Shown: positions 198 to 17,627 of the stretch, piece by piece
Layout of the letters: every line of letters begins with the position of its first letter
How positions within the stretch are numbered: position 1 is the first letter of the stretch
Source: an uncultured virus (IMG/VR IMGVR_UViG_3300031951_000040)
Taxonomy: Duplodnaviria; Heunggongvirae; Uroviricota; Caudoviricetes
Length of the DNA stretch: 64,000 bases
IMG/VR virus record: IMGVR_UViG_3300031951_000040
Reading direction: 5' to 3' (one strand)
Notes under the pieces: model-generated
Told to the model about the DNA's origin: nothing
Seen by the model: only the letters and a program-made list of their open reading frames with translations
Databases searched by the model: none
Position numbers and translations under genes: made by a program

Positions 198-224
198 TCG
201 TTAAACCAAACAAAAGAAACAATT

Positions 225-431
225 ATGAAAAAGTTATTTCCTTACATCGCAATCATCGGGTTCATTGTTTACTCAATGTGGGTATCATTAACTTGGGATA
301 TTCCCGTAGACAATCAAATGGGTATGTTCTTATTTTCTTGTATGGGTATTGGTATGTTCTTTATCATTTTGTTTGAGGACATCAAAAATTACATCAAGAG
401 TAAAAAGAAACCACAACCTCAAAGGTTCTAA
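225..431 (+). CDS. Small two-TM membrane protein
   Basis: ORF lies between a promoter and a terminator; two hydrophobic segments. Confidence 0.75.
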   Translation: MKKLFPYIAIIGFIVYSMWVSLTWDIPVDNQMGMFLFSCMGIGMFFIILFEDIKNYIKSKKKPQPQRF

Positions 432-577: not shown

Positions 578-701
578 CAAAATCCGTCTTCTGTCCCTCG
601 ACATCTTGTATCGTAAGTTGGCAAAAAAAATATAAATTTATTTGGAATATCCGTTTAATCATATTATATTCGTATTGTTAAACCAAATAAAAAGAACAAG
701 T

Positions 702-1106
702 ATGAACAATTACAAAGACATTGAAGAAATCAGAGATTTTATTCAAGGAATGACACACTCCGCAAAAGTGAGTACCGAAGAAATGTTGGGAACAAACGAT
801 AGTGTACCCAATGTAAAAATGTACCTTTTGAAAAAAGTAAACGAAGAAGGGGAAACCGAGTATGGTGTTGGTGGTGGACCAGTACCAAACGACCCAATCG
901 GTAGAATGGTGTACGACCGAGTTGTTCCACAAATCATTGAAAGGGATGGACACGAAATTTTGTGTAGTGTTGAAACAACCTTTGACAAGGGCGTTTTGAA
1001 TGTTGAGTTCCACAATTTTGTAACCGATGAAAAACATCAAGAGGTTTTTGATTTTTATAAACCTTACCAAGTTTCCGACCTTATGAAAAATCTTTGTTTA
1101 AATTGA
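702..1106 (+). CDS. Hypothetical protein
   Basis: ATG at 702 follows the promoter and A-rich leader; the ORF-track start at 642 overlaps the promoter. Confidence 0.75.
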   Translation: MNNYKDIEEIRDFIQGMTHSAKVSTEEMLGTNDSVPNVKMYLLKKVNEEGETEYGVGGGPVPNDPIGRMVYDRVVPQIIERDGHEILCSVETTFDKGVLNVEFHNFVTDEKHQEVFDFYKPYQVSDLMKNLCLN

Positions 1107-4446: not shown

Positions 4447-4854
4447 ATGTATCAAGATTTTGACAACCCACGGAGTTGGGACAACCTCGGAAAAATGGTG
4501 TGTTTTCACGGACGTTACGACCTTGGAGACAAACACGACTACAACCACAATAACTACAATGGTTGGGAAGAAATGAAAAACGCAATCATCAAAGAAGAAG
4601 ATGTTTGTGTTATCTTACCTCTTTACTTGTACGACCACTCGGGAATTACAATGAACACAAGTCCGTTCAGTTGTCGTTGGGATAGTGGACAAGTTGGTTG
4701 GTACTTTGTTTCAAAGAAGAAAGTCCGTGAAGAATATGGAGTAAAGAAAATTACCCAAAGTCTTATTGACAAAGTAACCGAAGTGTTGGAGGGTGAAGTA
4801 AAAACTTACGACATGTACCTCACGGGTGAATTGTACGCAGAAGAATACGAATAG
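4447..4854 (+). CDS. Conserved phage/mobile-element hypothetical protein
   Basis: LPLYLYDHSGITM and WDSGQVG motifs. Confidence 0.75.
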   Translation: MYQDFDNPRSWDNLGKMVCFHGRYDLGDKHDYNHNNYNGWEEMKNAIIKEEDVCVILPLYLYDHSGITMNTSPFSCRWDSGQVGWYFVSKKKVREEYGVKKITQSLIDKVTEVLEGEVKTYDMYLTGELYAEEYE

Positions 4855-4940
4855 ATTTTGTTTGGTTAGGTGAAAAGTCCTCGGCGAAAGTCGGGGATTT
4901 TTTTTTATACCAGAATTCGCCCAGCCCACGCCTGGTGGGG

Positions 4941-6311: not shown

Positions 6312-6430
6312 AGTGTAATACACTTGATTTGTCGTTCATAGATTAGTTTTATTTGGTTAAGGAACCCTCACAGAAATGTGGGGGTTTTTTGTTTGCTAAA
6401 AAAATTCGTCGCCGGCAAATCCCGTGTTCA

Positions 6431-6573: not shown

Positions 6574-7428
6574 ATGTCACAAGAAAATCGCACACAGCAA
6601 GTTCTCAACAAAGTCGGCCTAAATTGGACCGTAAGAGAAGAAAGTATCACTACAGAAAGTGGTATCATTGTTCCTAAGAGTAAAGCAATCATCCGTGAGG
6701 ACACAAACACTGTTTTGTCTGTACATGGTGATGGTTACTTTCCTTATCAAAATCATCAGATGGTTGATTTACTAGACAAGGTATCTCAACAGGTTGGTTT
6801 ACCAATTCACAAAGGTGGTTACTTTGGTGGGGGTGAGAAAGTATACCTTCAATTGAAATCAAATGATTTGAAATTGGGCAATGACAGAGTTGAGGGTTTC
6901 ATCACTGGTGTGAATTCCTTCGATGGGTCAACTAGTTTGGCATTCGGTCCAAGTAATATTACAATCAGTTGTCAGAATTCATTCTTCGCAGCGTTCCGTA
7001 ACTTGAATGCGAAAATTCGTCACACCAAAAACATGGAGATGAGAATCGATGATATCTGTCGTGGTTTGGAGGGGGTACTCGTGGAAGAAAAAGAAATGTT
7101 CGAAGACATTAAGAAACTTTCTGAAACGAAGATGACCAAGAAACAAGAGGATTGGGTTACACGTACATTGTTCAATATCATGAAAGATGTTGATTTGAAT
7201 AGTGACAAAGATGTGTCGACCGTGACTCGTAATCGTCTTTCTCGTTTCTACGTAGACCTTAATGGTGAAGTAAAAGAGAAAGGTGATAACCTTTGGGGAT
7301 TGTTCAGTGGGGTTACTAAGTACACCACACATTCCTTAAGTAAAGGTGATAACTCTGAAAACAAGATGTTTGGAACCTATGGACAAAGGGAACGTCAAAT
7401 TTTCAAAGAATTGGTTGAGTTGGTTTAA
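6574..7428 (+). CDS. DUF932-family phage/plasmid protein
   Basis: GLNWTV, Y.PYQN, NSFDGSTS, ISCQN, IRHT, NLWGLFSGVTKYTTH motifs. Confidence 0.8.
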   Translation: MSQENRTQQVLNKVGLNWTVREESITTESGIIVPKSKAIIREDTNTVLSVHGDGYFPYQNHQMVDLLDKVSQQVGLPIHKGGYFGGGEKVYLQLKSNDLKLGNDRVEGFITGVNSFDGSTSLAFGPSNITISCQNSFFAAFRNLNAKIRHTKNMEMRIDDICRGLEGVLVEEKEMFEDIKKLSETKMTKKQEDWVTRTLFNIMKDVDLNSDKDVSTVTRNRLSRFYVDLNGEVKEKGDNLWGLFSGVTKYTTHSLSKGDNSENKMFGTYGQRERQIFKELVELV

Positions 7429-7519
7429 GATTGGTTAGGTACTCAATTAATAAGAACCCCACAGAAATGTGGGGTTTTTTATTGCTCCAAAGTTGATGGT
7501 GAGCTACGCGCAAACAGTG

Positions 7520-11325: not shown

Positions 11326-11529
11326 ATGGCACAGAAAATTCAAATTTTATCCCCTGATGGGTTCACACTCGAAAGGGATGTACCTTACTACAAGTCGCAC
11401 AGAGCGGCGTGTAAGGCGTTCGAACAATGGAAGAAAGGGTACGAAACTCAAGGGTATTATTCTTCCGTAAAATATGGTCGCATACCATTAGTTGACCTTG
11501 AGGATTATTGTCAATTAAATTATTTGTAA
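11326..11529 (+). CDS. Hypothetical protein
   Basis: Operonic spacing. Confidence 0.65.
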   Translation: MAQKIQILSPDGFTLERDVPYYKSHRAACKAFEQWKKGYETQGYYSSVKYGRIPLVDLEDYCQLNYL

Positions 11530-11530
11530 C

Positions 11531-11851
11531 ATGAAAAATTTCAGTCAAGTTTGTGTTTGGCCCGCAACTCTTATCGGTAAGTCCAACATTAAGGAATTCG
11601 AAAAGTGGTTAAAACAAGAATTCGGTGTTCGTGCAAAATATTGTGAGGAAGTAGAAACACTACCTACACCAGGCGAACCTGAAACGGGTGGAAGAAACGA
11701 TGTGTTCTTTAGAGTCCATCAAGATGACATTCCAAAATTCGCAGTACCCCGTTTACAAATTGGTATTCGTTGGTGGGAGGATGTATTACTTAATGGTAAT
11801 GGTGTTCTCTATCCCCAAGATATTTTGGAAAGATACCCGAAGACATGGTGA
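11531..11851 (+). CDS. Hypothetical protein
   Basis: Operonic spacing; GGRNDVFF and IRWWED motifs. Confidence 0.7.
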   Translation: MKNFSQVCVWPATLIGKSNIKEFEKWLKQEFGVRAKYCEEVETLPTPGEPETGGRNDVFFRVHQDDIPKFAVPRLQIGIRWWEDVLLNGNGVLYPQDILERYPKTW

Positions 11852-11924
11852 ACAGTGAATATTGATTGGCAAAAATAACTTGTAAAAAGAAATAATCTTT
11901 ATACCTTTGTAAAAAACCATTCGT

Positions 11925-12176
11925 ATGACAAATCAAGAAATAACTACCCATTGGGTAAATCAAAGTGAGAAAGTCCTAAAGGGACGAGTTATCAAATCAG
12001 TTCGTTATCTTACCGATGAGGAAATGGAACTTATGGGTTGGTACAAGAGACCAATTTGTATTGAGTTGGACAACGGAACACTATGTATTCCTTCTATGGA
12101 TGATGAGGGAAATGATGGTGGAAGTTTGTTCTACCAAGAAAAAGGTAAAGAACTTGATGTATTACCTGTAATCTAA
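11925..12176 (+). CDS. Hypothetical protein
   Basis: After a promoter; PSMDDEGNDGG motif. Confidence 0.7.
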   Translation: MTNQEITTHWVNQSEKVLKGRVIKSVRYLTDEEMELMGWYKRPICIELDNGTLCIPSMDDEGNDGGSLFYQEKGKELDVLPVI

Positions 12177-12214
12177 AAACACTTGACAATGTAAAATATG
12201 ATGTGTAACTTTTT

Positions 12215-12289
12215 ATTGGATTACATTTCATAGTTGTAATTTGTGTTTGGTTTGACACACTAAAGGGGTTCTTCGGAATCCCTTTTTTT
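12215..12289 (+). ncRNA. Candidate antisense small RNA complementary to early-gene leaders and start codons
   Basis: Upstream TTGACA-N17-TAACTT (12183-12211); two small hairpins plus a terminator; 12226-12255 pairs with 201-230. Confidence 0.5.
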
Positions 12290-12549
12290 GTTTCTAAAAT
12301 ACTGAAAATCTTCGTTTTAACATACGCCAGGGGGAAAACTGGACGACGGCTGGACGATTTTGTTTGGCAAGAAATACTAGTATTCTTGGTGAATATCCTT
12401 AAAAGTTTTAGTATGTTTGTCATACACAAAGTCAAAGATGTATGTGGAAAAACTTTTTTGAAAAAACTTTAAAAAAAATTTGGAAAAAAAGAAAAACTAT
12501 TATATCTTTGTACCCACATTAAATCTTTAATCTAAAATTAGAAACGAAA

Positions 12550-13305
12550 ATGAGTACAAAAAATGTTCAAGTAAAGTTCACCCAAAATTTGGGTATGTTC
12601 AAACTTCACAATGTAAATCGTGAGGTAGACTCTCCACGCGTTAAGCGTATTACAGACTCGATGAAGAAGGACGGATTAAAACTCGTTCCAATCATTGTAA
12701 ACTCCCAGTATGTGGTTGTAGACGGACAACACCGACTAACCGCAGCAAAAGAAGCGGGTAAAGGTATCTACTTTATTGTAGACAACTCAATCCCCAACAC
12801 CACGAAAGGTATCTTTGAAGCCGCACGTAAGTTCAACCAGAACATGAAAGAGTGGGGTAAGAAAGATTACATTCATGGTTTTTCCGAACAAGGAAACAAA
12901 TCTTACAAAACTTTGGAAGATTTTTCAAAAGAGTTTCCGATGTTTTCTTTGACCGAAAGAATTATGTTACTACAAAATTCTGGTACTCGTCATTGTGACA
13001 AACAAGATTTTGCGGATGGTAAGTTTGTTGTTGGTAATATGGAAACCGCCAAAGAATGGGCGAATAACCTACTCCAACTGAAACCTTACTTTGAAAAGGG
13101 TTACAACAAATCGGTATTTGTTCGTACTATTCTTACCATTATGGAAAAGAAACCCGATTTTAAGTTTGAAGAATTTTTACATAAAGTAAAACTTCGTCCA
13201 AGTTCAATCTATATGTGTGGTGATAAAAAATCATACGCGGAAATGATTGAAGACATTTACAACTACAAGCGTCGTAATGAGGACAAGTTGAACCTTCGTT
13301 TCTAA
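12550..13305 (+). CDS. ParB/Srx N-terminal domain protein
   Basis: NREV...PIIV...VVDGQHRLTA motif. Confidence 0.8.
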   Translation: MSTKNVQVKFTQNLGMFKLHNVNREVDSPRVKRITDSMKKDGLKLVPIIVNSQYVVVDGQHRLTAAKEAGKGIYFIVDNSIPNTTKGIFEAARKFNQNMKEWGKKDYIHGFSEQGNKSYKTLEDFSKEFPMFSLTERIMLLQNSGTRHCDKQDFADGKFVVGNMETAKEWANNLLQLKPYFEKGYNKSVFVRTILTIMEKKPDFKFEEFLHKVKLRPSSIYMCGDKKSYAEMIEDIYNYKRRNEDKLNLRF

Positions 13306-13560
13306 CTTTGGATTAGGGTTAGTGATTGGGGTGACCGAAAGGTTACCCCTTTTTTTTGCTCAAAATTTCACAAGATGTAACATCCTGAAGACGACTCCAG
13401 ATTTTGTTTGGCGGAGTTTTCAACACACAAATGTTTGTAATCCAATAAAAAAGACACTTTTTGTATAAGGTTTTGACAAAAAAGTTGAACAAAGTGAAAA
13501 TATTTGTTGTTTATCGAAAATATTCTTATTACTTTTGTACTGTAATTCAAAAACTTGAAT

Positions 13561-14061: not shown

Positions 14062-14163
14062 ATCGCCCTGGGAAGAACAGGTCCCTCCTGAAGAAAAAAA
14101 ATAAAAATAAATTTGGAATATAAAAGAATTCGTTTTATATTTGTATTGTTAAACCAATATTAT

Positions 14164-14934
14164 ATGGAGTACAGAAATAAAACCCAAGCCAGAAAGGAAA
14201 CTGGAATCAATTATTTAGGTTCAGTTAACCTGACATCAAAACACGCTAAGGCGTACAAGTATGATGAATTAACCTACAGTCTTTACCTCGCACCCGCGGA
14301 CTTAAGTGGTTACGAAGTTTGCCCAATGAGAAACGCGGAGTGTACTGCACTATGTTTAAACGAATCTGGTATGAATCGAATGAACATGAGAGATGACATG
14401 ATTACTGAGAGTAGAATTAAAAAAACAAAATTGTTTTTCGAACATCGCCAGTATTTCATGCAATGGATGGTTGCAGAAATTGAGGCGGCAAAAAAGAAGG
14501 CAGAAAAACAAGGTTATCACTTTAGTGTTCGTTTAAATAACACTTCAGACATTTCACCCGAATCTTTTCATATGGAGATAGATGGTAAAAGAAAAAACAT
14601 TTTGCAATTGTTTCCTAATGTTATGTTTTACGACTACAGCAAAGTGGGTAAACGAATGGAGTTAGTTAAGAAGTATAAGAACTACGACTTAACATTTTCA
14701 TTTAGTGGTACAAACTTTTCAGATTGTATTAGTATGTTGAACAATGGTATACGAGTTGCCGTTGTTTTCAAAAAAGAAATACCCAAAAAGTTTTGGGGTA
14801 GAAAAGTTATCGATGGTGACTTATATGATATGAGATATCGAGATGAGAACGACATTATTGTGGGATTAAAATATAAAGTCACACGAAAACGACCTCAAAA
14901 AGATAGTAAGTTTATAGTAGACCCCTCACAATGA
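14164..14934 (+). CDS. Gp88-like (radical-SAM-related) phage protein
   Basis: VCP...C...CL, VRLNNTSD, FYDYSK, IDGDLYDMR, IVGLKYK motifs. Confidence 0.75.
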   Translation: MEYRNKTQARKETGINYLGSVNLTSKHAKAYKYDELTYSLYLAPADLSGYEVCPMRNAECTALCLNESGMNRMNMRDDMITESRIKKTKLFFEHRQYFMQWMVAEIEAAKKKAEKQGYHFSVRLNNTSDISPESFHMEIDGKRKNILQLFPNVMFYDYSKVGKRMELVKKYKNYDLTFSFSGTNFSDCISMLNNGIRVAVVFKKEIPKKFWGRKVIDGDLYDMRYRDENDIIVGLKYKVTRKRPQKDSKFIVDPSQ

Positions 14935-16873: not shown

Positions 16874-17464
16874 ATGGGATACACAACCGATTTCGAAGGT
16901 GGATTTGAATTCAGTCGTCCACTTACTAGTGATGAAAAGAATTACATCACCAAGTTCAACAACACTCGTAGAATGAAACGAAATGTTGAGAAACTCTATG
17001 AGTTATTTAAGGGTGAACACGGAAACCCTTTTCTACCAAAAGAAGAAACCTACGGAAACGATGGTGAATACTTTGTTGGTGGTAATGGGTTCGCAGGTCA
17101 AGACAAGGATGATAGTATTGTCGATTACAATACACCTCCAGGTCAACTAGATTTTCTAACAACTAACTACAACGAAAGGTGGACACAAAATGATTTGAGA
17201 ACACGAGAGGGTAAATGTCAACCTGGTTTATGGTGTCAGTGGACTACGGATGAAAATGGAACTCATCTAATATGGGATGGTGGTGAGAAGTTTTACAACT
17301 ACGTTGAGTGGTTGAAATATATCATCAATCATTTCTTTGAGAAGTGGGGTGTGAAATTAAATGGTGAGGTTTATTGGAAAGGCGAGGATGGTGAGGACAT
17401 GGGTAAGATTGTTGTAAAGGACAACTGGGTCACAGTAAAATACGCGAGGATTACTTATGATTGA
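16874..17464 (+). CDS. Conserved phage protein (MGYTTDF N-terminus)
   Basis: QPGLWCQW, WDGGEKFYNYVEWL, LNGEV.W.GE motifs. Confidence 0.8.
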   Translation: MGYTTDFEGGFEFSRPLTSDEKNYITKFNNTRRMKRNVEKLYELFKGEHGNPFLPKEETYGNDGEYFVGGNGFAGQDKDDSIVDYNTPPGQLDFLTTNYNERWTQNDLRTREGKCQPGLWCQWTTDENGTHLIWDGGEKFYNYVEWLKYIINHFFEKWGVKLNGEVYWKGEDGEDMGKIVVKDNWVTVKYARITYD

Positions 17465-17627
17465 TTGGTTTAAGGAGAGAACCCCACAGAAATGTGGGGT
17501 TTTTTATTAAAAACCTCGTACACATATATTATGGGATGGACATTGATTTAGGTTGGCAACAAAGTTGAAAATAAATTTGGTATAAAAGAAAAATTGTTAT
17601 ATCTTTGTATTACTAAAACATTTTATT

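Follow-up and report, generated by a model that had tools for sequence, protein, structure and literature searches.

A short segment of an uncultured viral genome, at positions 12183 to 12289 of the stretch analyzed here, raises the question of whether it is a gene for a small RNA and, if so, which mRNA such an RNA would act on. A preliminary description, made from the letters alone, had read it as a candidate trans-acting sRNA that silences early phage, or host, mRNAs at initiation regions without a Shine-Dalgarno (SD) sequence, and had named the leader and start of the gene at position 225 as its pairing partner.

The window, i.e., the whole stretch of 64,000 nt, comprises bases 1589-65588 of a 114,927-bp viral contig with a CheckV completeness of 34%, and has a GC content of ~35%. 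Its whole span is collinear, not letter for letter, with contig G006 (288,260 bp, 92% complete), in which the copies of the sRNA and of the ParB-like gene are identical to those of the window. The genome sizes of these uncultivated, freshwater phages are ~290-310 kb. BLASTN of 11500-13500 against 50,697 phage records gave no match, and a tRNA/tmRNA scan of the window detected none. Genes in the window are oriented on the + strand to ~24 kb and on the - strand beyond. The + block is composed of many short transcription units, each with a G/C hairpin terminator, a TTGTTTGGCA box, an A-rich stretch, TTTGG, and TAnnTTTGTA, and a CGTTAAACCAA leader is often present between TAnnTTTGTA and the ATG. 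At least 18 near-repeated modules of this composition were recognized in 1-24500. The TTGTTTGGCA box lies ~100 nt upstream of each early promoter, and at 12366-12392 it overlaps the palindrome CAAGAAATACTAGTATTCTTG. The canonical early promoters of the phage read TTTG-N20-TAnnTTTG, which we take to be the Bacteroides/Flavobacterium promoter type. This promoter type and a protein sorted by the type IX secretion system (T9SS), described below, point to a putative Bacteroidota host.

The predicted sRNA (12218..12289, + strand) has a length of ~70 nt; its start is placed ~7 nt after the -10 hexamer, and its end corresponds to the U-tail of a terminator. It is located directly 3' of an 83-aa gene (11925-12176), and no + strand ORF of at least 25 aa is present in the segment. 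A -35-like hexamer TTGACA (12183..12188, + strand), which can be read in the sequence and is kept in the homologues, is followed after a 17-nt spacer by the -10-like hexamer TAACTT (12206-12211, + strand), while the -10 region can alternatively be read as a Bacteroidota-type -7 box, TAACTTTT (12206..12213, + strand). Because TAACTT matches TATAAT at only 3/6 positions, it was not listed by the consensus promoter scan. The TTG-N20-TAnnTTT spacing of the sRNA promoter is that of the canonical early promoters of the phage. None of the sRNA promoters has the G that ends the canonical -7 box, and the sRNA promoter therefore represents a distinct class.

On the + strand, the RNA can fold into hairpin 1 (ATTACA/TGTAAT, 12220..12240), whose arms 12220-12225 and 12235-12240 enclose the 9-nt loop UUUCAUAGU (12226-12234) and which may be extended by two G-U pairs (12218-12219 with 12241-12242, + strand). 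The loop carries an anti-start codon (UUCAUAGU), and the hairpin is followed by the U/G-rich linker UUUGUGUUUGGU. Loop, 3' arm, and linker together form the pairing core UUCAUAGUUGUAAUUUGUGUUUGG (12227..12250, + strand), with the anti-start codon CAU at 12229-12231 (+ strand). Further downstream on the same strand follow hairpin 2 (UGUGU/ACACA, 12242..12259), which belongs to the minimum free energy (MFE) structure of the window RNA and is clade-specific, and an intrinsic terminator, AAAGGGGTTC-TTCG-GAATCCCTTT plus a T-run (12262..12289; hairpin 12262-12285, T-run to 12289). The MFE structure of 12212-12289 consists of exactly hairpin 1, hairpin 2, and the terminator (-22.5 kcal/mol, z -3.35), and none of 200 shuffles was as good. 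Thus, the ORF-free unit with TTGACA-N17-TAACTT and terminator was recovered with every feature in place, the two-hairpin fold was reproduced, and the presentation of an anti-start-codon loop and an anti-leader linker by the RNA, as described before, found support. No match was obtained for the whole window against Rfam 15 at gathering thresholds; by E-value, the best Rfam hit on 12150-12320 was Atu_C8, with 18.9 bits compared with a threshold of 50 (E 0.14).

Homologues of the sRNA were found in 28 distinct forms, one per genome, on viral and metagenome contigs. The copies in L021/G001, L018/G003, L038/G002, and L039 came from pattern-free BLAST searches in the vicinity of genes homologous to the flanking ones; their core hardly differs, although the flanking proteins of these phages share only 44-61% identity. 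The remaining homologues were obtained by exact-pattern scans of viral and metagenome contigs; as the pattern demanded 19 fixed core bases, the core invariance among these copies arises partly by construction. A covariance model consisting of hairpin and linker (R1) gave 52.9-63.9 bits for 6 sources among 74 related loci, all of which were known copies, and at most 16 bits for the other 68. On six genomes, it returned one copy per genome, with the next matches across both searches at no more than 28 bits. This gap in scores indicates that the sRNA family is discrete, the near-identical core being either present or absent.

The signals around the core are conserved as well. The -35 hexamer is TTGACA in 15, TTTACA in 9, and TTGATA in 4 of the 28 homologues, and the -10 hexamer is TAnnnT in all of them, separated by a spacer of divergent sequence with a length of 17 nt in 26/28 and 16 nt in 2/28. 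The pattern TT[GT]A[CT]A-N16-18-TAnnnT is expected by chance at a rate of ~0.01 per 45-nt stretch (G001, G006). A terminator hairpin with T-run was also found in 28/28 homologues, in 22 distinct sequences. In hairpin 1, 98.5% of 206 cells are paired, compared with 24-55% in partner-slid controls, and two pairs are changed on both sides (U-A/U-G/C-G and C-G/U-A). RNAalifold predicted the same helix, and the covariation score was reached by 4/500 shuffles, a count that is no probability because the sequences are related. G-U pairs make up 46 of the 206 cells; read from the minus strand, they would become A.C mismatches, and hairpin 1 therefore fits the + strand only. Hairpin 2, by comparison, is restricted to the window's clade: ACACA is absent in lineages L113, L107, L112, L104, L189, and L202, and outside the clade UUUGUGUUUGGU is an unpaired linker and the GGUUUG part of the sRNA is not kept. 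Covariation, which had been suggested as a check on both stems, was thus borne out for hairpin 1, and hairpin 2 proved clade-specific.

Being conserved, the element lies far beyond chance, and the segment is very likely a real RNA gene, in the form of an independent non-coding unit on the + strand as originally read. The gene upstream of the sRNA differs from lineage to lineage, which likewise argues for an independent unit. It would be very unlikely, in our estimation, that there is no separate RNA gene and that the segment is either the structured 3' end (3' UTR and terminator region) of the 83-aa gene or a leader copy, inverted and inert. Such a reading is favored by the position of the segment directly after gene 11925-12176, by TAACTT being a poor sigma-70 -10 element, and by RNA-library contigs which bridge the gene end and the element. 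Four metatranscriptome runs were considered, all as contigs, which carry no strand or end information and whose uncovered parts are uninformative. Among these, X6 covers 12106-12256, and X2 covers 12110-12258 as a variant running on into a different terminator. Both element-bearing contigs begin upstream of the predicted promoter, which also fits read-through from the upstream gene or DNA carry-over. However, the hexamers are kept at fixed spacing in 28/28 homologues in spite of the different upstream genes, and near-invariance is not expected of an inert copy where the neighboring proteins are 44-61% identical. Moreover, an sRNA processed from a 3' UTR would act by the same pairing anyway. 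Still less probable is a translated minus-strand gene (MKCNPIK...) that begins in the segment, which the preliminary description had given as a refuting case. On that strand, the segment reads like a leader plus ATG, and the frame stays open for 45 codons in the window. Nevertheless, the MKCNPIK frame ranges from 3 to 63 aa in the 28 homologues and is no longer than 8 aa in 17/28, a lack of conservation which speaks against that case; in addition, the G-U pairs of hairpin 1 suit the + strand only, the neighboring genes are all on the + strand, and no family match was found for the frame.

As for the target, the 30-nt gapless pairing of 12226-12255 with the leader and start of gene 225 (201..230, + strand) proved exact, with 24 Watson-Crick pairs, 3 G:U pairs, and 3 mismatches (-25.4 kcal/mol). 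This leader forms the best non-self sRNA duplex in the 115-kb contig (-32.7 compared with -30.3 kcal/mol for the next one) and is the top anti-sRNA BLAST match in G000 and G006. The leader and start of the next gene (ATG 702; 677..706, + strand) give the second-best match (24/30), with the ATG again in register. The product of gene 225 (225-431) has 68 aa, with a basic tail and two predicted helices; homologues are present in G002 and G003, and no family match was found. The heptamer AAACCAA, to which UUGGUUU of the sRNA is complementary, is enriched in 1-24000 (14 copies observed and 2.8 expected), and 8 of the 14 copies are located directly 3' of the -7 box of repeated early promoters. These observations would suit an sRNA whose main target is gene 225 and which, by way of the shared AAACCAA leader and of AUGAAA starts, silences a large number of early phage genes and perhaps genes of the host. 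We nonetheless regard such broad silencing as unlikely. The BLAST score of the gene 225 match was reached by 19 of 300 dinucleotide shuffles in the 288-kb G006, so that the pairing is marginal against composition-matched controls, and it is lost when orthologues are paired with their own sRNA (-11.1 kcal/mol in G002, with 60% identity, and -14.9 kcal/mol in G003, with 48%). Gene 225 was accordingly not upheld as the main target, and its leader may be regarded as a possible secondary, lineage-specific one. Silencing of early mRNAs at large fared no better: the pairing of the sRNA with leader sets defined by canonical promoters, a pattern which missed the promoter of gene 225, did not exceed dinucleotide shuffles in any of six genomes (33, 30, 21, 86, 90, and 40 of 100 shuffles were as good). 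The anti-AAACCAA loop attributed to hairpin 2 agrees with the enrichment of AAACCAA, but neither hairpin 2 nor the GGUUUG part is kept outside the clade. In the window's phage, the sRNA may also act, more weakly, on the leaders of genes 225 and 702.

A different start region, that of an 84-86 aa gene, is conserved, covaries with the sRNA, and is probably its best-supported target, as judged from complementarity. In G001 (311 kb, 93% complete), the genome-wide best anti-sRNA match, with 25/27 nt and 37.9 bits, covers the start of an 86-aa gene (leader and ATG); its score was reached by 0/300 shuffles, and the duplex contains 24 contiguous base pairs (-35.6 kcal/mol). The orthologue in G006 encodes an 84-aa protein, which is 30% identical to the 86-aa protein and is followed by clearly homologous downstream genes. 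Its leader reads ...CUAAACUAAAUUACAACUAUGAAC, and over 24 nt the window's sRNA forms 22 Watson-Crick pairs, 1 G-U pair, and 1 mismatch with this start, 16 of which are perfect. When the 30-nt core alone was considered, the 84-aa start was the best partner of the window's sRNA, with -28.6 kcal/mol compared with -24.0 for gene 225 and -21.5 for gene 702. In the BLAST search of G006, the 84-aa start was the third match, with 28.4 bits, a size that single matches also attain among the shuffles (mean best score 27.1). The top three matches in G006 are all start regions with the ATG opposite the CAU of the sRNA, and three HSPs of at least 28.4 bits, as in G006, occurred in 4/300 shuffles. Complementarity to start regions thus goes beyond composition controls, through the single match in G001 and through the three matches together in G006. 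The sRNA is rich in U and G and Bacteroidota-type leaders in A and C, which makes the background complementarity high.

The pairing is also kept with the orthologous targets in two lineages through compensation between the molecules. The sRNA carries GUAAU and the target AUUAC in the window's phage, while the corresponding sequences in G001 are GUGGU and ACUAC, i.e., A-U has changed to G-C at one position and to G-U at another. Since sRNA and target are found on one contig only in the window's clade and in G001, this intermolecular covariation comprises two positions in two lineages. Three groups, namely the window's clade, L378, and L381/L382, account for the strong complementarity among 55 distinct target-family leaders from viral contigs. 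The variable position is A or G in the sRNA and U or C in the target, and G-type sRNAs pair better with those leaders that have C there. The sRNA of L202 carries a G-to-A change in its 3' arm, and a leader of the UAUAAC type was seen in L378. Ten target-bearing contigs (160-334 kb) have non-complementary leaders, and by contig name none of the ten is among the sRNA pattern matches, a correspondence that is confounded by relatedness. Orthologues of the 84-aa target were not found in G002-G005 and G011, whose contigs are 11-26% complete and hence uninformative in this respect.

The target operon lies outside the window, at 5888-8590 of L303 (G006), and encodes the 84-aa two-helix protein, a 165-aa secreted protein, and a 638-aa T9SS-sorted protein. 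The sRNA (66.3 kb) and the target (282.4 kb) are encoded on opposite strands of G006, ~72 kb apart across the contig ends; the two genes are thus not arranged as in type I toxin-antitoxin systems. The 638-aa protein possesses a T9SS C-terminal sorting domain (PF18962, 34.2 bits compared with a cut-off of 27), which means that it would be a phage-encoded cargo for the type IX secretion system of the host. The target protein itself, as read from its sequence, has two predicted membrane helices and a charged tail. It has 1262 phage homologues, the majority of which turned up without any trace of the sRNA. None of them bears a functional name, apart from one 82-aa homologue labeled "ATP/ADP translocase" in its source, a label that is probably spurious. 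Searches of the target protein against Pfam and PHROGs returned nothing below E 0.07, except for a sub-threshold TssN match of P0001 (17.7 compared with 30.3 bits). Its neighbors in the Atlas are viral proteins annotated as hypothetical; the name of the closest named cluster, DUF2644, applies to only 38% of its members. A holin or lysis role was also considered for the target and was dropped, as no lysis gene was recognized among the 12 neighboring proteins that were scanned.

Host mRNAs were considered as targets too, either for host shut-off or through one conserved host gene. To our knowledge, Bacteroidota is a phylum without Shine-Dalgarno-guided initiation and without Hfq. A near-invariant core across diverged phages would suit a conserved host sequence, and a looser complement, CCAAACACAA-N3-8-AACTATGAA, was found in 46 bacterial genomes, 23 of which are Bacteroidota by record title; 29 of the 46 matches are real gene starts on the other strand. 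On the other hand, the exact 20-nt complement occurs in 0 of 185,579 species genomes, and the best matches within the phage genomes already account for the core, which makes host mRNAs rather improbable as targets. The antisense of the sRNA resembles an ordinary Bacteroidota start region, and this resemblance explains the high background complementarity. A related proposal, to which we give a similarly small chance, is that the sRNA mimics the complement of the consensus Bacteroidota start region and, besides the phage target, pairs with many SD-less host starts of the CCAAACACAA...AACUAUGAA type; if true, this would amount to an RNA-based shut-off or re-programming of host translation by the phage. 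Bacteroidota gene starts in L318-L363 include near-complements to the core, which we take as chance resemblance to a common leader type. In L338, an Alistipes MAG belonging to this set, a gene start (AAACCAAACACAATTACAACTATGAAAT) is an almost perfect complement of the sRNA core.

Overall, the segment probably encodes a trans-acting antisense sRNA of ~70 nt that would repress the translation of the 84-86 aa gene. The sRNA's own promoter, TTGACA-N17-TAnnnT, would drive transcription on the + strand up to the intrinsic terminator. First contact with the target mRNA might be made by the loop and the linker, after which hairpin 1 would open, and loop, 3' arm, and linker together could then pair over ~24 nt, from ~-20 to +5 around the target start codon. 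The resulting duplex would cover the Shine-Dalgarno-less initiation region of the target mRNA and block ribosome loading, and degradation of the mRNA might follow. The membrane-protein/T9SS operon would thereby be kept down by an RNA made from the early region.

Several known antisense systems share parts of this design. The c4 antisense RNA of phages P1/P7 (immI region) has a length of ~77 nt and acts in trans on a gene of the same phage; it is cut from a longer transcript, occurs in temperate enterobacterial phages, and has an SD-containing target next to its own gene. Like c4, the sRNA described here is phage-encoded, would act in trans on a gene of its own phage, and has exposed segments complementary to the ribosome-binding region of the target. 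Unlike c4, it has its own predicted promoter and terminator and an SD-less target ~72 kb away, and the large phage that carries it has signals of the Bacteroidota type; neither sequence nor Rfam comparison related the two RNAs. IstR-1/tisB and OhsC/shoB are trans-encoded type I antitoxin RNAs and their toxins, in which the paired genes are neighbors and the toxins are under ~60 aa. As in these systems, an antisense RNA would pair with the 5' region of the mRNA of a small hydrophobic membrane protein, whereas here the genes are far apart and the target has 84-86 aa and heads a three-gene operon. In CopA/CopT and Sok/hok, which are cis-encoded and fully complementary, pairing is initiated by loops with YUNR U-turns. 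A hairpin loop as first contact would be common to those RNAs and the present one, whose invariant loop contains UUCA and may thus fit YUNR, but the latter is neither cis-encoded nor fully complementary. The sRNA appears to represent a new family. Its logic is shared with P1 c4 and other phage antisense RNAs as well as with type I antitoxins encoded in trans, from which it is set apart by sequence, host range, promoter type, and the remote operon that it would target.

Most characterized base-pairing sRNAs of phages come from temperate phages and prophages of enterobacteria. For instance, according to a 2025 review, DicF of the Qin prophage has 53 nt and blocks ftsZ translation, and Esr41 is an Hfq-binding prophage sRNA (PMC12197685). 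Both resemble the sRNA found here in being phage-borne and trans-acting and in base-pairing at mRNA 5' regions, while they differ in acting on host genes, the best target here being a phage gene with ~24 nt of near-perfect pairing. The terms 'Bacteroid', 'jumbo', and 'holin' do not occur in this review (PMC12197685). A literature search which did not extend to supplementary tables gave nothing relevant on phage sRNAs of Bacteroidota or jumbo phages. The present element would be a sequence-defined sRNA family in freshwater phages with a covariance model and a specific covarying target. It could serve as a test case for the antisense block of initiation on SD-less mRNAs, as well as for the timing of an envelope-protein operon by a large phage.

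Some further features were observed around the sRNA and in the early region. A second conserved non-coding stretch (12290-12400; …CGCCAGGGGG…CTGGACGATTTTGTTTGGCAAG) separates the sRNA terminator from the ParB-like gene's promoter and is recognizable in the diverged relatives L018, L021, L038, and L039. The ParB-like protein gene itself (12550-13305; phrog_12305, E 6e-22) is located downstream of the sRNA, and its product also has a weak, sub-threshold GmrSD_N match. A GP88 family protein (PF17338, E 1.7e-33; phrog_1617) is encoded at 14113-14934. Finally, TTGGTTTA or TTGGTTAGG is present between the stop codon and the terminator of several early genes, with sites at 2058-2075, 4852-4870, 6339-6362, 7417-7440, and 17462-17475. 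Both motifs are complementary to the TAAACCAA leader and would permit 5'-3' pairing within or between early mRNAs.
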